From: Octopus vulgaris
Taxonomy: Eukaryota
Length of the DNA stretch: 64,000 bases
NCBI GenBank assembly: GCA_951406725.2
Contig: OX597822.1
Coordinates: 32,116,001-32,180,000 of the forward strand
Direction: 5' to 3'
Each line of letters begins with the position of its first letter. Position 1 is the first letter of the stretch. The notes under the pieces are model-generated. The model was not told the origin of the DNA, searched no databases, and worked only from the letters and a program-made list of their open reading frames with translations. The translations under genes were made by a program, and so were the position numbers. Shown piece after piece: positions 1,324 to 44,034 of the stretch.

Positions 1324-2673
1324 TCATTGGTATGAGAAAAAGGTATGCCTTTTCCAGTGGAGGCATCTGAAAGAACTCTGCACAATCGAGTTTACAAGCC
1401 GTCCTCGGGCGAACAAAATATGAAATAGTTCGGAGTTACAAAGGGCACAGATTTTTTTTTCCCTTATCAAACGGTAAAGACACCGATAAAATTGACCATT
1501 CCAGTCTAAAAGTTGAATTCGCGTTCTTCAAACGCCAGACTAATTTGCTTAGCCCAGTAGCGTGTTGCTTATCCCTATCTCGGAACGTGGAAAAATGGTT
1601 CGATATTCTTGTGGCTAATTTTGATGATGTAGCGCCGATATAAAGGAAGACATCGGATTCAGTATAAACTCTGCACTGATAAATGACGTTTCTAATTTTG
1701 GAGTTGCTAGATAAGAACCTTAATCTATTGGGATTGGTTTCCGATACTAATACAGCGTTCTTATTACTATGATGGTTGTAAAAACTACCGCTGGATTCGA
1801 TACTATTCACCCCATTATCATTACTATTTAAGGCAATATCACCTGCATATTCCCTGTTACTGGGAATGCTGTGATTGATAATGTCCGTAAAACTACTGTT
1901 GTTAAAACCGCTGCTAATATTATTGTTGGGACTCCCTTCGTTAATGACGAGATCAGTGCTCTTATCCTTATTACTGTTACTAACTCCAATGTTGGTATGA
2001 AGGCTGCTAATATCTTTGCTACTTCTATTATTATTATTATTACTATGCGTTATGTTGGAATTTGACGGGGCAGAGTCTCTGCTCATGGGTGAGAGGGCCT
2101 TATTTAGCAGCTTATAGTTATGGGAGGCAATTATCTGTGAAATATTTTTAGTATTTGAGAAAGCTATCCTTACTTTGTGCGAATTTATAGTGGAGTAATA
2201 TCTCGAATTTCTGGGAAAATTTCTGGCAATGGCTTGGCGAAACTGCAACGGTAGGTTAGATCTTATTTGTTTACCAAAGGGAATCACAAACCAGATATAG
2301 TTTTTCATGTTCTTGTACTGGCTCGGAGATTCAACTCTTACATTAAGGGGGGCATCTCTGGGTTGAATAATGGGTTTTGGCCTACGATGGCCTCCCATGG
2401 ACCGCAAATTATTTATGTTATCTATATTTGTGTTAGCTGTACTTGTGTCGACATTCCTAAAGCTACCATCACTACTTATATTATTTATATTACTGTAAGT
2501 TGACTTATCCTGATGATAAAATTCTGGTTTCGGAAGGGCCGGGTCTAAATATGTTACCTTTTCCCTATACCCGGCTTTTGACAGGGCGGCATTATAGAAT
2601 TCCGCTTTATGCTTAAAAATGTCGACGTTGGCAGATAAATTTGATAATCTTAGAGAAATATTTTTAACTAAAT
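1324..2673 (-). pseudogene. PLE RT-thumb/linker/GIY-YIG endonuclease, frameshifted
   Basis: Shifting frame in the T9 run at ~1452-1460 continues the protein as ICALCNSELFHILF...VNS...RCLHWKRHTFFSYQ*, restoring the CxxC..E...N...CxH C-terminus. The ORF's ATG (2740) lies in an antisense SINE and is not native. Confidence 0.8.
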
Positions 2674-2732
2674 ATGCATTTATAAATTTCTGTATAGGCG
2701 CTGGCGTGGTTGTTTGGCAAGTAGCTTGCTTC
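2674..2732. repeat. Inverted duplicate of window positions 1-59 (SINE head plus unique flank)
   Basis: 58/59 identity to the reverse complement of 1-59, including about 21 bp of non-SINE flank. Confidence 0.9.
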
Positions 2733-2850
2733 CCAACCATATGCTACCGGATTCAGTCCCACATTGGGCAAGTGTTTTCTACTATACCCTCGGGTCGACC
2801 AAAGTCTTGTGAATGGATTTAGTAAACAGAAACTGAAAGAAGCCCGCTTT
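2695..2850 (+). mobile_element. tRNA-derived SINE family A, 5' part
   Basis: ggcgc.gg.gtgg...gtagcttgct...gggcaagtg...gaaactgaaagaagcccg, shared with many copies in the window. Confidence 0.8.
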
Positions 2851-3371
2851 GTACATACTCACACACACATACATGTTATATATGTTTTAGTTTGTATACG
2901 TTAAAGATTTTTAAGCTCGTGTCATGGCTATCTGAATAGCACCACATTAATTTTTTTCGCAAATCAGTGGTTTGTCTAGTAATTATTGGCGATTAATTCG
3001 ATTCTTGTGGGAATCTTTGATTCTATCGTGATTCAAAATAATAGTGACTAAAGCTGGACTGGCAGTATTTGTGCCACAGATTTATGTGACAAGATCTTTG
3101 TTTTTTTTTAATTTTAATTTATGTACATTTTTTGCTTCAAATATGACACTAAAGTTATTCATAATTTCCCTCTAGTTGTCTCTAGGTTCATATCTGTTAT
3201 GTTGAGGATTTTGGCCTAAATTCTGTATGCTGCGAAACAAGGCTACAGAGAACTATGTCATGGTCTGAGAGATTTGTTTTTCTATCATGTTACAGATGGT
3301 GCTAGCATGGTTTCTTAATATTTACTTCAAATTTTGACACAAGGCCAGCAGTTCCTGGGCAGGGGTTATTC

Positions 3372-3995
3372 CTTATTTTTTTATTGCCGACAAGCGGCTA
3401 AACATAGAGGGGACAAACAAGGACAGACAAAGAGAATAAGTCGATTACATGAACCCCAGTGCGTTACTAGTACTTTATTTATCATCTTAACTCAGAACGT
3501 AACGGCAGACGAAATACTGCTAAACATTGCGCTTAGCATACTAACGTTTCTTATTTCTTTACTGCCCACAAGGGGCTAAACATAGAGGGAACAAACAAGG
3601 TCAGACAAAGGGATTAAGTCGATTAGATCGATCCCAGTGCGTAACTGGTACTTAATTTATCGACCCCGAAAGGATGAAAGGTAAAGTCGACCTCGGTGGA
3701 ATTTGAACTCAGAATGTAAAGACAGACGAAATACTGCTAAGCATTGCGCCTGGCATACTAACGTTTCTTATTTCTTTACTGCCCACAAGGGGCTAAACAT
3801 AGAGGGAACAAACAAGGTCAGACAAAGGGATTAAGTCGATTAGATCGATCCCAGCGGGTAACTGGTACTTAATTTATCGACCACGAAAGGATGAAAGGTA
3901 AAGTCGACCTCGGTAAAATTTGAACTCAGAGCGTAACGGCAGACGAAATACCGCTAAGCATTTCGCCCGGCATGCTAACGTTTATGCCAGCTCGC
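3372..3995 (-). mobile_element. Head-to-tail array of three SINE family B units (period ~217 bp)
   Basis: Repeated aaggggctaaacatagag...gtcgacctcgg...gaactcagaacgtaa...ctaacgttt. The central ggtcgactttgcctttcatcctttcggggtcgataaa resembles the Meta/Sauria-type SINE domain (recalled). Confidence 0.85.
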
Positions 3996-4239
3996 AGGGG
4001 TTAATTCTATTACGTTAACCCCAGTGCTCAACTGATTTTTGTTATAGTAACTTTGGTGTCGATGTTTGGCACACGGCTATAAATTTTAATGAGAGTATAT
4101 GTCGATTATATCGACACCAGTATTCAACTGGTACTTATTTCATCAGTCTAGAAATAATGAAAGGCAAAGACAACCTCGGTTGAATCTGAACTCAGAACGT
4201 AAAGACGGATGAACTATCGCTAAGTATTTGACTGAGCGA

Positions 4240-4442
4240 ATAGTAATAATATTAGTAATAGTGGTGCTGGTGCTGGTGATGCTGATAGTAGTAGTATAAA
4301 TGATGATGATAGTGGTGGTGGTGATGGTGGTGAAAGCATCACTAGCAGCAACACCAGTAGCAGCAGTAGTAGTAGTATTAGTAGTATTAGCAGTAGCAAC
4401 AGTAGTAGTAGTAGCAGCAGCAATAACAGCAACAGCAGCAGC

Positions 4443-4511
<69 letters not shown>

Positions 4512-4770: not shown

Positions 4771-5503
4771 ATAGGTTCGGTTGCCATGGTGATGGATGTG
4801 GAGCTTAGCGAATGTTGAGGATAGGCTTTACCATAAGAAGCGGAATAGACAGTTACGAGGTGACTGAAGTCAGTGCCAAGTAGAGATTGTTTCTCTTGTG
4901 CAATTTTTTTTTTGTTTTTTTTATTGCCGCTGAACGCAGCAGAAGAAAATATTAAACGGTGGTTTGTGCATTTCTATATTTCTTTATTTGATTATCTATT
5001 TACTTAAGTTGTACATCGGTATAAAGCAAACAAGACATGCCTGACTAAGACAGGTATATAATACACTTTATATAAAAAGGAGAAGCACAGCAAACAAAAA
5101 TGAACAATAAAACGAAAAGAACGCAAAGGGCAGAAGTAGTATACTGATAAAGAATAGCTAAATGTTTCTGTAGTTGAATTTTTATGTAACCCTATGAACA
5201 AGAAGATCATTTTGATGATTGATGGATCCTTGAAAATAGAATGCATCACCAACAATGATAGCAGTTTTAAAGCCGCTTAAAAAATGTTCTATATCTCTCA
5301 GACTAGTAATCTTTACTTTGGAACTTGACATGTCATGGGGTCTCTGAATAGCACAACAAGAAAATAAAATTGGTTGCGTAACAGAATATATTCTAAAGTA
5401 GTATTCCGTTTGAAGCGAACAAAGTCTTTGTTTTGATAACCTTGCTCAATAGGATTGGCTTTAAATGGGTTATTTACTGAGAGGAAAAGTTTTCGATATC
5501 TGC

Positions 5504-5857
5504 TTTATTACCTCCGCCTGAGTGAAGACTGAGCTATTGTTTTCAATCGTCTATGTTTGACTTTAGACAAGATATCTCAAGAACTTCTTGATGGATTCTG
5601 ATGAAACTTTCAAGGATGTTTGGCCACGTGACTGGCACGAATTGATAATGTTTTAGGATTGATCAGGTACCGGAAAAGGATTCTGGATTATTTTTTCCTT
5701 TTTTTTTTTAATTAATTGTTGAGAACAGTCTGGTTCATTTTTAGTATTCTCGTTTGAGAGACCAGTCTAATTTATTTCAGATCTTCTCATTCTAAAATCG
5801 TTAAGAGCACGTTTATGTTGCTTTGGCGGAGATTTGCGCACTCTGAGTGCACTTGTT
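5504..5857 (+). mobile_element. Non-autonomous Helentron/Helitron2-associated (HINE/DINE-like) element
   Basis: 5' tttattacctccgcc; subterminal inverted ggcggag at 5825-5831; 3' hairpin gcactc-t-gagtgc at 5838-5850; T-rich ends; internal ggatt.tgatgaaactt motif. Confidence 0.65.
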
Positions 5858-6119
5858 TAATTTGTTTTTAGTGTTTCTACAATAATCGATTGGGGCAAAT
5901 TTGGCAGTAATGTTAGTGAAACATGTATCATGTGACATGCACGCCCGATGCTTCGGAGAAGACCTACACGTTCGATGATCTTAATATCAAATTTCCTCTC
6001 TGTCAATTTATGATTCTTATTGGATCTGTTCATCATGTTGTAGGATTTTGTAGTATTGTTCGTGAAGATACCTTCTGTTTATTTATACATTATTGTTATT
6101 ATTATAATCATCATCATCA

Positions 6120-6175
<56 letters not shown>

Positions 6176-6199
6176 AAGAGAGAGAATAAAAAAACTGAA

Positions 6200-6495
6200 C
6201 AAATACGACGTTTGGAAGTGGGAAACATGAAGGTTGTAGTCAATGTGGAGAGTAGACGTGACGTCAATAGTAATTTGCGTACTTGGGAGTACCAACAGGA
6301 CTCAAAAAGATTGGTACAAATATAAAGAGAACGCCTACAACAATCAGCATTGCTTGGAACTACATGAGTTCTTTGTAGAGTTCTTGAAACATGACCAGTA
6401 AACAAATGTCAGCTTTGTCTGCTAGCTATGGACACGGACACTTTCCATCATGCTCAGCAAAATAAGCTGAGACTTTTCATCAAACGATAATAATT
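6200..6495 (+). mobile_element. Degenerate RLE (R4/Dong-like) LINE 3' end
   Basis: Encodes LQQSALLGTT*VLCRVLET and ends in ataataat. Its 3' UTR matches the minus-strand copy at ~34508-34610. Confidence 0.6.
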
Positions 6496-6602
6496 CAATA
6501 TTTCTGATTTTGGTGATCAATGAATAAACTTTACTGAAAAAAAAAAAAAAATATATATTTACGAAGTCTACACAAATATCTTCAGCTAGCAGGCCTTGCT
6601 AC

Positions 6603-6648
6603 TCTAGACTGATGATGGGCAAGACCCAGAAACATGCATGTCTCTAGA
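6603..6648 (+). ncRNA. Canonical minimal type I hammerhead ribozyme
   Basis: tctaga-CTGATGA(6609-6615)-tggg caaga ccca-GAAAC(6629-6633)-atgcat-GTC(6640-6642)-tctaga. All three stems pair, and stem I extends imperfectly out to 6552/6696. Confidence 0.92.
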
Positions 6649-7000
6649 CGCAGGCCTAGCTGTTGGGGGTGTTTGTCTCCCCTTCGTAAATATATAAGGA
6701 CACAAGAAATGTGTCAAGGCCGACAGGAAGCTTCGATGCTTCCAAGGGCTAAATAGCGGTGGTATAATCCCTTTACGGGACTGTCACGTTAAGTTGACAG
6801 TATACAACCACAATAGTACTAATAATAATCAGAAGACACTCCTTCCAGCAAAATCCCAGATAATTACATCGCTTGTAGAAACATTATGCAATCATACAAT
6901 CACCTCATCAGTGTCCTCTAGTAAGTACAATAATTGATGTTAAATTGCAAAATATATATATATTATTTTTCCACCATACTACAAATAATTAACAAACTCG

Positions 7001-7933
7001 CATATCACATATACTATATATAAAAAATACAAAAATGGGACAAGAACGCAAAACATCCAGAAAGTTAGGTGAAACAAAAAAAGGAAAACAAAATGTCCAA
7101 ACAGACAATACAAGGAAAACAAAGACGGATCATTCGGAGTTTTCTTTCCTCAGTCGAGTTCCAGATTATCTTTGCAATTTCGGCTGGTTATACTCGAGAT
7201 TGCTCCAATCTGGCCAGCCCCAAGGAAAAATAAGCTAAGAGCATTACATTCCTTGGAAGAAAGCAGCGAATGTATACGAAACAAGGACGAAAAAAAAACA
7301 GAAATTTTATACAAATATAAATAACAGGACATAACAACAGGTGTCTTTCGACTAAGGACGAATTAAATTAAGCTGGCGTGTGTGGAAGTAAAGCCTTACA
7401 GCAGGGACATATGATTTAACAAGCATAGGAAAGAATATAGATGTTGCACGGACAATAGTCCTACTAAGAAAGAAAGGTCAGGCCTAGCCGAAGACCGGTC
7501 ACGTGGGAAGAGAAGAGAGAGAGGTAGAGGCAGAGAGATAGAAGAATTAAGGAGGGGCGAGAGAAAAATGAAAGAGACACAATGAAGTGAAAGTGGGAAA
7601 ATGAGTATGAAGAGAAGGCCATATCACATATACTATATATATATTAAAAAAAATACAAAATGGGACAAGAACGCAAAACATCCGGACAGCTAGGTAATAC
7701 AAAAAGTGACAAGAAAACATCTAGATGAACGATACAAAGAAAACAAGGACGGGTCATTCGAAGTTTTCTTTCCTCTGTCAAGGACCAGATTTTACTCGCA
7801 ATTTCGGCTGATTATTCTTGAGATTGCTCTAATCTGACCAGCCCCAAGGAAAAACTAAGCTAAGAGCATTAGATTCCTTTGAAGAAAGCAGCGAACGTAT
7901 ACAAAAACCAGGTATAGACAAGCATCATATCAC
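7001..7933. repeat. Partial tandem duplication (7001-7619 and 7620-7925) of a TA-anchored repeat, probably a PLE-type pLTR
   Basis: Both units start catatcacatatactatata..aaaatacaaaa(a)tgggacaagaacgcaaaacatcc. CATATCAC occurs at 7001, 7620 and 7926. A related segment lies at ~42130-42300. Confidence 0.7.
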
Positions 7934-8304
7934 GGATATCCGAACAGTGCAATTTCTATCTCAAATCAAAATATATCCAATCAGAGAGAGAGAGAGAGGG
8001 GGGGTAAGAGGGCGAATAAAGAAACCTATAAAACCATAAAAAAAAAACAGAAGAAAGAAGATGATTGACCAAACTGATAGCGGAGGGTCAGCTCGGATTG
8101 TAAATTAGCTAGCGCTGTCGGTAATGCCGATTATTATAAGATAAAAATACGTATCATGTGCATAACAGATAAAATCATACACATTCAGACACGAACGAAA
8201 GCACGCACGTCCTTGCACCTACATATCTACACATGCATATACACACAATACATGTAAATAAACATTAAATACGAACACACACATACCTATGCACACAAAG
8301 ATAA

Positions 8305-8365
<61 letters not shown>

Positions 8366-8913
8366 TATATATATATATATACATACACACACACGCGCGC
8401 GCACACACACATAGACACACACACAGAAACACACACATATATATATACGTATGCATACGTGAATGCCTGTGCGCACAGACAAACACGTAGCTAAATCCAG
8501 AAGCACATATCCTCGGGAAAATACACACAGACACTCCCGCAACACACACACAATTATGTATGTCTATGTAGATGCAAACACTGAAATAGAATATAAAGTT
8601 AACGGGAAATATCGCGAAAGGCTGTTAGCCTTGCAAGTTCAACTAAAACCATAGTTGTGAATACCGTATAATCCCGTATAATGCTATTGCTCCTGCACTT
8701 ATTCCATTCTTTATTTTAAAGAGAATAGAATGAGTACAGCAATAGCAAACAGGAAGACGGATAGTGTCGCTGGAGAGGACACAGATGTGTGATGAAAGAT
8801 TGCCGAACAATGGACATGAATTATAATAAGAATTGTAATAAACGAGTGAATAACGAACATAGAGACCGTGTGTTTATTTGACAAAAAAAAAATGACCATA
8901 CCGAAATACAACA

Positions 8914-17285: not shown

Positions 17286-18525
17286 AGTTGAAGTTTACGG
17301 AAAAACCAAAAAATAGGTGTATGAATAACAGGCAGCTGTATCAGTTTGACGCTCGTGAAAGTGATAAAGTCTTATGTTTCGAGCCTACACACTTCAACAG
17401 AAAGAAATAAGAGAAAACACATAGAGAGAGAAAAAAACTTGTAGATTTAGTGATGAAGCATAGCGACTGGTATGCCTGAGAAAATAAGGTTTGACGGTAG
17501 AGGTGTAATGAAGAGGAGATAATAAAGTATTGGTGATCCGAAAACGAAGATGCGCGTGCATGTGTGTATGTAAGAATGTGTAAGTGTGTGCGTGGATAGG
17601 GACTAGTGATTTTGACGTGTGGATGTATGCGTAAGTATGTGCGTCTGTAAACTGTGGCTGTGTGGATGATGGTGTGTGGGTGTGCGGATGATGGTGTGCA
17701 GTGTGAGTGATGATGGTGTGTAGTGTGAGTGATGAGATGTCAGTTCTAGTGTGTGCGGAGTGGTGTGGGGTGTGGGGGATGTGGTGTGGGTTGAATGTGG
17801 GGTGGTGTAGTGTGTTGTAGGGGTGGAGTAGGGTGGTGTAGGGGTGTGTGGAGTAGGGTGGTGTAGGGCTGTGTGGAGTAGGGATGGGGTATGTGGCAGT
17901 GAGGTGCGTGTGGGTGCGGTGTGTGTGGAGGGAGTATCAAAGGAAGTGGAAATGTGAGTAGGACTGAAGAGAGGAAGGAAGTGTCAGAGGAAGAGAGGAG
18001 AGGGTAGGATTGAAGAGAGGGAGTAGGTGTCAGATGAAGAGAAGAGAGGAGCGGAGTCAGATGAAGAGAGGAGGTGAGTTGAGCCGTTCACGGCGACGGC
18101 GGGAAACCGGATGGCCTCTGTGCAAAGACAGTCCGAACATTGACAGGTGGGAATCCAGATGGCCCCTGTGCAAAGACAATCCGGACACTGACAGATATTG
18201 TAAGGAGTTTAGAGCGGAAACGGCGCGAGACCGGGGTGGCATTGCCGAGTCTGATGCCTCGGAGGTGCTCCGCGTACCGGTCAGCCAAACGGCGTCCAGT
18301 TTGACCTTTGTAAAGAGAAAGGCAGAAAGAGAAGGTGATGTAGTAAATGACACTGCAAGAAGTGCAGGCAAAGAAGTCGGTGATATGATAGGGACGATGA
18401 TGAGTGCCTGTGAAGAGGATGGTGTTGGAGAGGTAGTGGCAAGTGCGGCAGCGTGGGCAGGAGCAAGGGAATGAGCCAGGTTGGGATGTAGTGTTAGGGA
18501 AGAAACTGTGGACCAAGAGGTCATG
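17286..18525 (-). mobile_element. 5'-truncated Neptune-like PLE (Cys-rich linker, GIY-YIG, 3' UTR/pLTR) ending in (TA)n
   Basis: ORF 18088-18516: CSCPRCRTC...FACTSCSVIYYI...LYKGQTGRRLADRYAEH. Contains an internal ~48-bp duplication, a degenerate HHR at 17369-17404, and a 3' end shared with 44900-45032 and 53200-53358. Confidence 0.85.
18088..18516 (-). pseudogene. PLE GIY-YIG endonuclease fragment
   Basis: VIY...YKGQTGRRL..R..EH motif, with the frame disrupted downstream. Confidence 0.8.
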
Positions 18526-18578
18526 TAGGCTGCGGGTTCATTTGTGTATAATATATATATGTATGTATACATATGTGC

Positions 18579-36125: not shown

Positions 36126-37008
36126 CGAACCATGATAAAACAATGGCAAGAAAAGCCCCTTCATGGTAAATACAGGACTAAACTAAACGCAAAAGAAATA
36201 GACAAAGATAAATCCCAACAATGGTTGAGAAGCTCAGGACTCAAAGGAGACAGAGGGATTTTTAATTGCAGCACAAGACCAAAGCCTTCCCACCAGAAAT
36301 TACCAAAAACATGTAATGAAAAGAAATAGACCCAGTAACTGCAGAATATGTGGAGATGGACAAGAAACAATAAATCATATTATCTCTGGCTGCCCAGTCC
36401 TGGCTAAGAAGGAATATATTCACAGACATGACAGAGTTGGAACCTACATACACTGGAAGCTATGCCAACATTATGGAATAACAACAAAAAAAAGAAGGTA
36501 TAGGCACACACCAGAAAATGTCACAGAAAACGAGAAAGCAACCATACTCTGGGATATGCCGATACACACAGATAGAGAAATTAAGGCCAACAGACCAGAT
36601 ATAGTTGTCAGAGATCATGAAGAAAAAAAATGCTTTCTAATTGATGTATCAATACCGGCAGATGACAACGTGTCTCTAAAAGAAATGGAGAAACTTTCAA
36701 AATACAAAGACCTGGAAATAGAGGTAACAAGAATGTGGAATCTAAAAACAGAAACAATTCCTATCATAGTAGGTACATTAGGCATGATAAAAAATATTCA
36801 GACAAATACATAACAAAAACACCAGGACTTACAAACACATATAACACACTGAAAATTGCGCTACTAGGCACTGCACACATCCTACGCAGAACACTTTCCA
36901 TACAGTAACCATCAGAGCATCACAACAAATCACAGCACATACCTAAGGCACACAGAGCTGCGCTCGGTAGTGAAGTGAAAGCACGCTATAAAAATGAAAC
37001 TACTGAAT
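36124..37008 (+). mobile_element. 5'-truncated R4/Dong-like LINE inserted in (TAA)n
   Basis: WQEKPLHGKY; CRICGDGQETINHIISGC zinc knuckle; RHD; RPDIVV...LIDVSIP...EKLSKYKDL. Flanked by (TAA)n-type repeats on both sides. Confidence 0.92.
36316..36813 (+). pseudogene. CCHC knuckle plus restriction-like endonuclease fragment
   Basis: ORF translation; frameshifts at both ends. Confidence 0.88.
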
Positions 37009-39757: not shown

Positions 39758-40409
39758 GTATTTGAATGTTAAGGCAGTGAGGTGGCAGAAACGGTAGCAC
39801 GCCGGGCGAAATACTTTGCGTCATTTCGTCTGTCGTTATATTCTGAGTTCAAATTCCACCGAGATCGATTTTGCCTTTCATTCTTTGGGGGTCGATAAAT
39901 GAAGTACTGGGCTCGATCTAATCGACAGGCACCCGCCCCCAAAATTTCGCGCATTGTGCCTTGAATAGAAAATAATATAATATGAATGATTTAGCTACTG
40001 ATTAAAACATGAACGTGTTCTAATAAACACATAAAACACCGAGTTGTATTAAGACTGCAGGAGCATTGCTCAGACTGTTTTGTTTTATTGAGATCACTAA
40101 TAATTGACTAGTATAGTTACAAAGAAGACTTGTTGAAAATAGTAAGCAATGTTGAGAAGAAAAGAAACAGCATTTAACAACACGTGTACTGCAGTGCTGG
40201 CTATATGCCTAGGTAGCTCTCTCTACAACGATTTGCTATTCTTGTTTATTAAACAGCATTGTTATGTAAGAAACACTTTATACAGCATGGACAATCGCTG
40301 TTAAACGAACGCTCGTATGCCACTAGTACCGATGGTGTAAATCAACACGGGAAAACGGAAAGTGAAGATACGTTCAGTGTTCGAGAAATTATATATATAT
40401 ATATAAATA

Positions 40410-41858
40410 TTACCGTCCAATCTCACTCACCTCTCATATCATCAAGGTATTTGAGAGGGTGCTGAGATCGCGTATGACTCACTTCCTTGAGAGTCATAAT
40501 ATGCTGAACCCCAACCAGCATGGATTCCGTAATGGGAGAGATTGCCTGACGCAGCTACTGCATCATTTTGATGACATTTTGAGAGCCTTGGGAGAAGGTT
40601 CCAACACTGATGTCATCTACCTTGATTTCAGCAAGGCCTTTGACAGGGTTGATCATAAGATCCTTCTGAGAAAGCTGTCCAATATTGGTGTCACTGGAAA
40701 GCTGCTGCAGTGGATCAAGTGCTTCTTGTCTAACAGAACCCAACATGTTGTAGTCGAAGGAGTCAAATCCAGCCCAGCCAAAGTCAGCAGTGGTGTCCCA
40801 CAAGGCACTGTGTTGGGCCCACTTCTCTTCATCACCTACATAAATGATATTACTGACACCATCAAACACAGTAACATCAGAACCTTCGCTGATGATTCCA
40901 AGCTCCAGAAGGTCATCAATGGCGTGGATGACCGAATAAACCTTCAGTCAGACCTACTGGCTGTTGTCCAATGGGCGGAAAAGAATAACTTGTTGCTAAA
41001 TGAAGACAGATTCGAACTGATCCACTTTGGAAGGGAGGACGCTCTGAAACTCCCATACTCTCTTCCTTCTGGAGAAATTCTCATGGCATCCAACAACATC
41101 AGAGACTTGGAAGTAACAGTGGACAACAACATAAGCTGGGCTACACATATAAGCAGCAAAGTTGACATGGCCCGCAGAATGTGTTCCTGGATTCTCAGAA
41201 CCTTCCAGTCGAGAGATTCCCACGCTATTATCCTTCTCTTCTCCACTTTTGCCCGACCCCACCTTGAATACTGCTGTCCACTGTGGTCTCCCTACATAAA
41301 ACAAAATATTATGAGAATTGAAGCTCCCCAAAGGTCAATCACAAAAAAGATAGATGGCATGTCAGACCTTGACTACTGGGGTAGACTAGAGAAGCTGAAA
41401 TTGTATTCACTCCAACGACGCCGTGAACGCTACATTATCTGTATGATGTGGAAAATATTCCATCAGCACTGTCCGAATGATGTTGGCATCACCTTCAAAA
41501 TACATCCAAGGCTTGGACCACGTGCCATCCGTCCACAACAAAAATCTAAATCGCATCACATAACGACAATACGGCACAACTATTTCACCTCAATTGGACC
41601 CGCTCTCTTCAACATTACACCAGGACACGTCAAAAAAGAAACTGACCACACAAAATTCAAGAAGTCTTTGGACAAATTCCTTCAAACAGTACCGGACAAA
41701 CCACCCACACCCGGATATGTCTCCGCAAACAATAACTCTCTGCTCGAATGGGCCTTGGTGCCCAAATCCTGAACTGAAAGACTTCGCCAGGTGGTGCTAT
41801 TAAGTTAGACATGGCCTGGGCCAATACTGACCAAAACCTTTCTAAGTTATTCTAAGTT
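40410..41858 (+). mobile_element. 5'-truncated CR1-group LINE between (TA)n runs
   Basis: Starts in-frame at YRPISLTSHIIKVFER; 3' tandem tail ttctaagtta x2. Confidence 0.93.
40459..41772 (+). CDS. LINE ORF2 reverse transcriptase (5'-truncated, uninterrupted 437 aa)
   Basis: QHGFR, IYLDFSKAFDRVDH, SGVPQGTVLGPLLF, FADD, RPHLEYC, LYSLQRRRER. No native start, so unlikely to be expressed as is. Confidence 0.9.
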   Translation: MLRSRMTHFLESHNMLNPNQHGFRNGRDCLTQLLHHFDDILRALGEGSNTDVIYLDFSKAFDRVDHKILLRKLSNIGVTGKLLQWIKCFLSNRTQHVVVEGVKSSPAKVSSGVPQGTVLGPLLFITYINDITDTIKHSNIRTFADDSKLQKVINGVDDRINLQSDLLAVVQWAEKNNLLLNEDRFELIHFGREDALKLPYSLPSGEILMASNNIRDLEVTVDNNISWATHISSKVDMARRMCSWILRTFQSRDSHAIILLFSTFARPHLEYCCPLWSPYIKQNIMRIEAPQRSITKKIDGMSDLDYWGRLEKLKLYSLQRRRERYIICMMWKIFHQHCPNDVGITFKIHPRLGPRAIRPQQKSKSHHITTIRHNYFTSIGPALFNITPGHVKKETDHTKFKKSLDKFLQTVPDKPPTPGYVSANNNSLLEWALVPKS

Positions 41859-42742: not shown

Positions 42743-44034
42743 CGAGGGGCGTTCAATAAGTAATGCCCCTGACCCACTTCCCATAGCAGTAGAGCAACGA
42801 AACTTGGCACAGTTATTAATATTTTTCTATATATGAACCACCCAGAGTTACGCATTTCTCCCATTGTTTGATGCAGCTCTGGAGACCGTTTTTGTAGAAA
42901 ACCCCAGCTTGGTTCTCCAACCACGACGTGTCTTCAGAAATCAAGGCTGCATCATCTGGGAAACGCTTTCCTTTCAAAAACAACTTCATGGCTGGGAAGA
43001 GGTGAACATCAGAGGGTGCAAGGTCAGGAGAGTAGGGGGATGGGGGAGGAGTTCATAGCCGCACGCCTGTGCTTCTGATCTGTCGACACGCAAGTTGTGG
43101 ACCGGAGCGTTGTCCTGCAGGAGGAGGATGCCTTTGCTGATCTTGCCCTGCCGCTTGATTTTGATAGCTTCTCTTAATTTCCTCAAAAGTGAAGCATAAT
43201 AAGCTCCTGTAATTGTGGTACCCTTTGCCAGGAAATCTGTCATCACTACTCCGTCCTGGTCCCAGAAGACTGTGAGCATGAGCTTGCCAGCGGAGGGCAG
43301 CACCCTTGCCTTCTTTGGAGGAGGTGAGTCACGGTGCTTCCGCTGTATTGACTGGGCTTTGGTCTCTGGATCATAGTGATGGACCCAGGTTTCATCCTGT
43401 GTAATCTGTCTTTTGAAAAATGTTGACTCATCTTCTTGGCACATCTCCAAATTCATCCTCGAGCACTCGACGCATTCTTACTTCTGGAAAGGTGTGAGCA
43501 ACCTGGGAATCCATCTGGCAGACACCTTTAGCATATGCAAATGGTCATGAATGATAGTTTCTACAGACCCGATACTAATCTTGACCTCATGGGCTATTTG
43601 GCGAATAGTTATGCGTCGATCTTCCAAAATGGCAGCTTCAACTTGACGGACAGATGCCTTATCAATGGCAGAAGGGGGGCGACCAGATCTGGGAGCTGTT
43701 TCCACAGAGTTCCGACCATATTTGAATTCACGATGCCAGCGTTTTACAAGGTCATATGATGGGGCATCATCACCTTAAGTTACTTTCATTTCATCAAAAG
43801 TCTCTCGTGGTGTGTGTCCTTTCAAATACAAAACCCGGATCACTGCTCGACACTCAACAGGCTCCATTTCACACTTGACTCAGTTCAAACACCTGTAAAT
43901 CAGAAACCACATTTAGTTCAGAGCTGTAATTTGCCACTTAATCTATAGAGATATCAATAATTGCACATGCAAAATTGCAGCTAGATCAACCAACTGCAAG
44001 CGGGTCAGAGGCATTACTTATTGAACGCCCCTCG
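42743..44034 (-). mobile_element. Full-length mariner transposon (1292 bp) with TA TSD
   Basis: 33-bp TIRs cgaggggcgttcaataagtaatgcc(c/t)ctgaccc with one mismatch; TA on both sides. Confidence 0.96.
42816..43867 (-). pseudogene. Mariner DD34D-type transposase, inactivated
   Basis: MEPVECRAVIR...; RSGRP; WIPRLL; TQDETWVHHYDPE; LLQDNAP; HPP/SPDLAPSD across a frameshift; in-frame stops. Confidence 0.93.

Follow-up and report, generated by a model that had tools for sequence, protein, structure and literature searches.

Organization of the window copy

The window analyzed here is a stretch of 64,000 nucleotides of Octopus vulgaris DNA (contig OX597822.1, positions 32,116,001 to 32,180,000 of the forward strand). 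It contains an element of 320 nt at 6492–6811, an extent that is matched by other genomic copies; an earlier reading made from the letters only (hereafter the sequence-only reading) had placed its start at 6552, and the true start is 6492. The insertion, on the + strand throughout, is built as follows.

6492..6811 (+): whole insertion; a single 5'-truncated arm that runs to copy-end site 1 and covers 320 nt of the ~360-nt family-A unit
6492..6508 (+): what is left of hairpin H1; the tail end, copy-end site 2, falls at ~6505–6508 in unit coordinates
6518..6536 (+): hairpin H2, with AATAAA (6523–6528) as its loop
6537..6551 (+): A15, a private expansion of the A4/(TA)n linker
6552..6696 (+): long rod extending stem I of the hammerhead
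6600..6649 (+): canonical type I hammerhead
6600–6602 (+): hammerhead loop I, TAC
6603–6608/6643–6648 (+): hammerhead stem I, TCTAGA
6609–6615 (+): hammerhead core, CTGATGA
6616–6628 (+): hammerhead stem II
6629–6631 (+): hammerhead GAA
6632–6641 (+): palindromic hammerhead stem III, with the predicted cut after C6642
6699..6715 (+): hairpin H4, gacaca/tgtgtc, strands at 6699/6710
6718..6750 (+): hairpin H5 in two parts, ggcc/ggct and ggaagc/gcttcc, with covariation between families
6756..6811 (+): 5' strand of H6, inner hairpins, and A/C-rich strand with copy-end site 1

The rod is closed by a perfect 15-bp helix, as had been read from the letters, 6552–6566 being the exact reverse complement of 6682–6696. 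The predicted cut after C6642 was also borne out, with CTGATGA at 6609 and GAAACATGCATGTC at 6629–6642, and the hairpins gacaca/tgtgtc (6699/6710) and ggaagc/gcttcc (6726/6738), as well as the inner hairpins of the H6 region, tccc/ggga (6768/6777, variable) and ctgtca/tgacag (6781/6795), were found where they had been described. Two other proposed helices did not hold. The majority base at 6754 breaks the pairing of gcta/tagc (18 of 27 copies), and instead of the domain gtggtata/tatacaaccac the full units form H6, in which GCGGTGGTG pairs with a strand absent from the window copy; the sequence-only reading saw another helix because this partner strand is missing there. The AATAAA (6523) and the A15 (6537–6551) are present as claimed, but both lie inside 6492–6811 and not upstream of the element. 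Their interpretation as a poly(A) signal and tail was rejected: AATAAA is an internal hairpin loop, and A15 is private to the window copy, the position reading A4 in 39 of 50 other family-A arms.

The region 6540–6830 folded at −104.1 kcal/mol, compared with −65.3 ± 4.6 for 200 shuffles, none of which was as good (z −8.45). The element is thus structured, as had been proposed, but it does not stand alone: it is one of many copies, and the exact 20-nt hammerhead motif of family A occurs 106 times in the genome, against 0 for the control.

The window copy differs at 17 positions from the majority of 27 copies. Its H2 is weakened by two private substitutions (6520 and 6532), and it has C6649 in loop I where 26 of the 27 have T. 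It comprises 0.9 unit with one hammerhead, the 43 nt closing the unit being absent from it. A clean target duplication was not found by eye at this copy, which belongs to the class left out of the target-duplication count given below. Because it has a single hammerhead and an incomplete initiation domain, the window copy is likely a dead end, and in itself it is an ordinary decayed insertion.

Other features of the window were a LINE-type RT fragment (PF00078) at 40366–41772 (+), a zf-RVT fragment at 36229–36813 (+) and a mariner-type transposase fragment (PF01359) at 42986–43477 (−). Two unrelated repeat pairs were also present, 7001–7281/7620–7906 (83% identical) and 6366–6465/34514–34610 (−) (81% identical), the former member of the latter pair lying directly 5' of the element.

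The repeat unit, its families and their fold

When the genome (G000; 2.8 Gb in 227 contigs) was searched, 3170 candidates emerged at first look, a figure that is not a copy number; 40 were scored, with 58 matches. Other copies run 43 nt past the position equivalent to 6811 and then re-enter the sequence of 6492; therefore the unit closes on itself. Natural monomers of 345–366 nt were found in families A (13), B (14) and C (13). The unit is non-coding, with a GC content of 0.40–0.445 and a circular-fold z of −7.5 to −10 in the three monomers folded. The superfamily has at least eight non-coding families in this genome; B, C, D, F and H were reached through divergent matches in flanks, and further families are represented by single examples in L192, L125, L297 and L058. 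Five divergent look-alikes were traced, and each was another self-closing non-coding family, none with an ORF. Mean identity was 0.83 between A and B and ~0.56 between A and C and between B and C. Within-family identity was 0.97 in B and C, which are young families.

When 53 named pairs were placed on 16 natural monomers, 94% were paired and 28 had changes on both sides, an amount of covariation exceeding 500 of 500 shuffles and every slid control; these counts represent four or five lineages and non-independent events, and it was this alignment that also supplied the structure. The compensatory changes include the 3' hairpins. As the unit is self-closing and non-coding, and both its rod and its 3' hairpins covary, the proposal of a non-autonomous hammerhead retroposon or retrozyme was sustained. 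H6 had a probability of at least 0.85 in two of three full units. A conformational switch between H6 and the gtggt/accac helix of the sequence-only reading was considered and rejected, the alternative having a probability of at most 0.03 in all three full units and no counterpart in families C or F.

The hammerhead

In families A, B, C, D and F the hammerhead has a 6-bp helix I with an internal loop, a 4-bp helix II and a short palindromic helix III, a layout termed canonical in PMC4209133. The window motif had been called minimal; the minimal hammerhead of Penelope-like elements (PLEs) described in that article has a helix III that is missing or pared down to the core, a short helix I and a long helix II, features that the window motif does not show, its layout being canonical type I instead. 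In Rfam scans of 5000–8500 and 6500–6850 neither a hammerhead nor any other ribozyme family was matched, the only matches being to simple repeats. The element is therefore called a hammerhead from its motif, its pairing and its covariation.

The cores are CUGAUGA or CCGAUGA in family A, CCGAUGA in B, UUGAUAA in C (33/33) and CCGAAGA in F. Family C thus carries a swap from C3–G8 to U3–A8 in all 33 copies, a covariation already described in PMC4209133, and stems I and II covary between families. Stem III is ACATGCATGT or ACATGCGTGT in family A, ACACGGTGT or ACACGTGT in B, ACATGT in C, ACTGCAGT in F and ATCGCGAT in H; ACCCGGGT, ACGCGT and ACTAGT also occur. Its sequence therefore varies across families and its self-complementarity is largely kept. 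The 3–8 swap, the covarying stems I and II and the differing stem III palindromes suggest a hammerhead under selection. Its activity may be low, because position 10.1–11.1 is U-A, U-U, A-U or C-A and in no family the usual G-C, U4C occurs in many copies, and the commonest stem III of family B is an imperfect palindrome of 9 nt.

In loop I TAC faces T, and loop II ranges from CAAGA to CAAATA; the two loops may resemble those that make contact in the Schistosoma hammerhead. For the window rod, stem III of the monomer had a predicted probability of ~0.01, with the active fold 2.7 kcal/mol above the minimum, and the double hammerhead was predicted as the two-strand minimum-energy fold (−135.9 compared with −124.6 kcal/mol).

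Anatomy of the insertions

Once 14 duplicate loci had been removed, 141 loci of families A, B, C and F remained and were placed on the unit; they are the best 30–40 matches per query, a non-random sample. Their 3' ends fall at two fixed sites 46–59 nt apart. Site 1 lies in the A/C-rich strand inside H6 (the equivalent of window 6811–6815) and site 2 behind hairpin H1. Head-to-head two-arm insertions made up 78 of the 141 loci, and 22 of 30 in family H, where eight were scored as one-arm. The arms are inverted, 5'-truncated and of varying length, and partial tandems occur.

The two outer ends of an insertion use one site each. This was so in 76 of the 79 two-arm insertions of A, B, C, F and H with both ends assignable (A 14/15, B 16/16, C 12/12, F 13/15, H 21/21); three broke the rule, and an end fitting neither site was seen in 21 of 100 two-arm insertions, one of them in family H. 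For A, B, C and F combined, 58 of 78 were assignable and 55 used one site each. The first 2x2 count, on A to C, was 0/18/20/2 (Fisher P 3.4e-9); the loci of F and H were fetched after the rule had been seen, and the queries of B, C and H pushed the found arm towards site 2, leaving the other arm unconstrained.

A simple repeat, mostly (TA)n, was present in a flank of 88 of the 141 loci. Among the 53 loci without simple-repeat flanks, 26 had target duplications of at least 8 bp (8–16 bp), the shuffled-pair control giving 2.7%; they were found in 20 of 28 two-arm and 6 of 25 one-arm loci. The features of PLE-type insertion were thus all present, namely one site per end, inverted truncated arms, and AT-rich or microsatellite targets, and the combination of two-site ends, inverted arms and target duplications is the signature of PLE insertion. 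Among the loci inspected, a family-D copy interrupts an old PLE ORF (L223), and a family-F two-arm copy lies beside a family-A dimer (L186/L227).

The possibility of a second RNA domain at the 3' side was supported as far as conserved structure is concerned, but a second ribozyme is less likely. As this domain holds both copy-end sites, it is more likely an RT-binding and initiation domain.

PLE enzymes in the same genome

Purified PLE protein uses two RT start sites bounding a tail, cuts both strands at AT-rich sites and starts at an A/C-rich stem-loop (PMC11167929), and inverted 5'-truncated arms with the tail at one end are a PLE pattern (PMC8557442). Since the end pattern described here matches that of PLEs, the driver class would be a PLE-type RT-endonuclease supplied in trans. 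The only PLE assayed in vitro could do without its hammerhead and copied mainly uncut RNA (PMC11167929).

Among the PLEs of the genome are some with intact ORFs, 781 aa or ~900 aa long. The 781-aa ORF encodes RT plus GIY-YIG, with an upstream ORF, and its family seems Neptune-like from its cysteine linker; the ~900-aa ORF has RW and DKT motifs matching the Hydra description. In both families there is a hammerhead whose stem III is palindromic, copies end 3' at two positions and the flanks are (TA)n, and the 781-aa family shares the UUGAUAA core and the ACAUGU stem III with family C and has a 39-nt tail. The 3' domain of the unit had no match in these two or in an older third PLE family (blastn, nhmmer; three of the PLE families of this genome), so that no homology to a pLTR or 3' end of an autonomous PLE was found among the three. 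In agreement with the sequence-only reading, which had seen no adjacent PLE ORF, none was found joined to the unit in the loci of A, B, C, D, F and H. PLE fragments do lie in some flanks, as separate elements with their own ends or interrupted by the insertion.

A 5'-truncated Hydra-like PLE, with an ORF fragment from RT thumb to GIY-YIG, lies in the window itself at 1436–2743 (−) and 682–755 (−). Downstream lies its type I hammerhead, in which stem II carries an insert of ~55 nt and stem III is the palindrome ACATATGT; intact ORFs of ~900 aa occur in its family, which gave no Pfam match and whose 3' ends lie at two places ~130 nt apart. The fragment at 1436–2743 was considered as the driver or the source of the unit and discarded, because the two are unrelated in the sequence of the 3' end and of the hammerhead. 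A weak match to the linker and GIY-YIG of the 781-aa protein at window 18250–18534 (−) is probably another decayed PLE. Outside the window, L123 carries a young Neptune-like PLE (768–2204 and 2126–4468) whose ORFs of 479 and 781 aa overlap and whose pLTRs form a perfect pair of 504 bp; it also has a U3–A8 hammerhead and a 39-nt tail. At L111:2050–2074 (+), a single example of a hammerhead-like motif was seen at a PLE 3' end, with core AUGAAUA (A3–U8) and a palindromic stem III. Finally, eight short hammerhead-bearing 3' stumps (L008:3134–3212, L069:2960–3027, L071:68–145, L099:455–532, L211:1236–1311, L036:735–823, L138:829–908 and L228:1203–1251) have a long stem II and a palindromic stem III and end in (TA)n. 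These are probably the ends of other PLE families and candidate drivers.

Template of copying and proposed mechanism

The cut site of the hammerhead was examined in the arms. There was one stop in 57 passes, in arms not selected to span the hammerhead. A linear cut monomer is disfavoured as template because every transcript would stop at the cut, and only 1 of 57 did so. Arms longer than one unit were found in 94 of 141 loci, a count inflated by long queries, and in 15 of 29 loci of family B, found with a 177-nt query; two units were reached by 5 of 141 loci and none extended beyond about three. Read-through together with arms over one unit implies a template that is either a circle or an uncleaved multimer. 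Unit positions 181–203, the 3' base of the rod, end 16 of 60 shorter arms (one of them query-bounded), and this frequent 5'-truncation point suggests that folded RNA was copied. A pile-up of 5' ends near unit position 338 might be taken for the completion of one circle, but it includes arms that began at either site, and stalling at a structure would explain it with equal likelihood. The repeated parts of an insertion were more alike within than between loci in family A (94.4 compared with 91.5%, 31/34, P 2.6e-6) and in B (18/24, P 0.013), and the same test was null in C (12/21) and F (14/24). Contig depth was also tried as a sign of expression and discarded: it was 3'-biased in four runs guessed to be RNA, and because three large runs of unrecorded kind had the same shape it is uninformative on transcription, ends and circles.

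Several readings of these data were weighed. A DNA-level element (MITE, fold-back or satellite) with an incidental hammerhead could account for the inverted ends and target duplications of two-arm copies, but it is largely refuted, and we give it hardly any credence: arm lengths vary with 5' truncation, the two ends differ by the tail, the duplications range from 8 to 16 bp, and an RNA is indicated by covariation that tolerates G-U and by the swaps in the ribozyme core. The sequence-only reading had left room for a solo pLTR, and the corresponding option, that the unit is a solo pLTR or the 3' remnant of an autonomous PLE not sampled at full length, is compatible with the PLE-like end features, with a sampling of best-scoring copies and 1.5-kb flanks, and with the report that Xenopus retrozymes often match PLE termini (bioRxiv 10.64898/2026.07.22.740005). 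It is nevertheless very improbable, for the longer copies have the unit itself before and after the unit, with no ORF, which makes a ~360-nt repeat and not an ORF plus pLTR, and the PLE fragments seen in some flanks are bounded by ends of their own or split by the insertion.

The same element could also be moved by a PLE enzyme from an uncleaved linear multimer transcribed from tandem source loci, the hammerhead acting later or in trimming only. Cut-site read-through and arms over one unit fit this equally well, stem III of the monomer is predicted to be unstable, and the anole PLE inserts from unprocessed RNA (PMC11167929). This template is considered unlikely, however, in view of the few loci that reach two units, the lack of a long array among 40 scored candidates (496-nt query), printed flanks that, segmental duplicates apart, share no non-unit sequence, and a catalytic core conserved with covariation; moreover, related repeats of mussel, coral and axolotl accumulate as circles (PMC7229834). 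A circular RNA is favoured over the uncleaved multimer because long arrays were not found and these published relatives accumulate as circles. The element is thus, with good probability, a ~360-nt non-coding hammerhead repeat copied from circular RNA by a PLE RT-endonuclease in trans.

For this copying from a circle the following course is proposed. Loci with at least two hammerheads would be transcribed and the RNA cut, probably in the form of a double hammerhead since a single stem III would not be strong enough, and the unit-length RNA would be ligated into a circle, as suggested by published retrozymes. Staggered cuts would then be made at AT-rich targets and both ends extended, site 1 starting one end and site 2 the other, as is visible at the DNA level; a single RT dimer may prime both DNA ends on the structured 3' domain. 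Copying would run through the cleavage site, often beyond one unit and with frequent stops at the rod base, as the arms record. The two cDNAs would finally join head to head, or a single arm would be captured, as in the window copy.

A more far-reaching version can be put forward tentatively, with somewhat less than even expectation: the elements would be viroid-sized circular RNAs with lineages of their own (identity down to ~55%, one conserved fold and no PLE terminus that matches). A PLE enzyme acting as a dimer, with one subunit per start site, would prime the two ends of a single chromosome cut on the same circle and roll round it. If this is true, the insertions are a genomic record of twin-primed rolling-circle retrotransposition, and both the PLE tail and the way in which animal retrozymes move would be explained.

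The enzyme that moves animal retrozymes and the circle as its template have so far been proposed rather than shown. From its sequence the element appears to be a new non-LTR retrozyme of animals, for which the genome offers unusually direct signs of PLE-type mobilisation: its short, young insertions, which number in the hundreds, fix both start sites to a few bases, obey the rule of one site per end almost strictly and show read-through at the predicted cut. Because this genome also has intact PLE ORFs, the question becomes directly testable in the existing in vitro PLE assay, and the natural variants of core and stem III are a test set for dimeric hammerhead cleavage.

Comparison with known systems

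The element is not an autonomous PLE, no RT plus GIY-YIG ORF being joined to the unit. Like Poseidon of Anolis carolinensis (Frangieh et al., 2024, PMC11167929), it has two internal RT starts bounding a tail, an A/C-rich stem-loop start and AT-rich targets, and like the PLE insertions described by Craig et al. (2021, PMC8557442) it has an inverted 5'-truncated arm and the tail at one end only, a pattern thus already known for PLEs themselves. It differs from both in the lack of an ORF and in a tail of 46–59 nt instead of 30–40. For Poseidon in vitro no strand difference in start site is described (PMC11167929), whereas the pairing of one site per end is strict here. Chlamys elements such as MRC1 (PMC8557442) are also non-coding PLE passengers with head-to-tail partial tandems; they generally match autonomous families at their 3' end, and no such match was found here. 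In a literature search by title and opening of the abstract, no report of two-site PLE ends in retrozymes was found; supplements may hold such structures or families.

Retrozyme repeats are described in a 2020 review as showing no motif that identifies their driver (PMC7761336), and no such feature appears to be named in PMC7229834. In their preprint, Li, Clavereau and Pollet (bioRxiv 10.64898/2026.07.22.740005) present animal retrozymes as PLE passengers and leave the mechanism open. The driver class and the existence of families rich in monomeric copies are shared with the present case; the evidence there is Xenopus co-occurrence and pLTR homology, while here it is the anatomy of the insertions, a homologous pLTR not having been found. 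In that preprint two hammerhead units define an active element, and the window copy has only one.

Close counterparts are the metazoan non-LTR retrozymes, which include mussel repeats of ~350–390 bp (Cervera and de la Peña, 2020, PMC7229834) and for which cleavage and circles have been demonstrated (PMC7229834). Those form tandem arrays, whereas the present element is found mostly as dispersed insertions of 0.5–1.5 units with inverted arms; its fixed internal end sites, tail and target duplications have been mapped. Both have a short, non-coding, highly self-paired unit (~170–400 nt and GC under 45% for these retrozymes, 345–366 nt and GC 40–45% here) with one canonical type I hammerhead per unit and a weak palindromic stem III, in genomes that contain PLEs. 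The element thus seems to work like a metazoan non-LTR retrozyme and, by its testable features, to be one.
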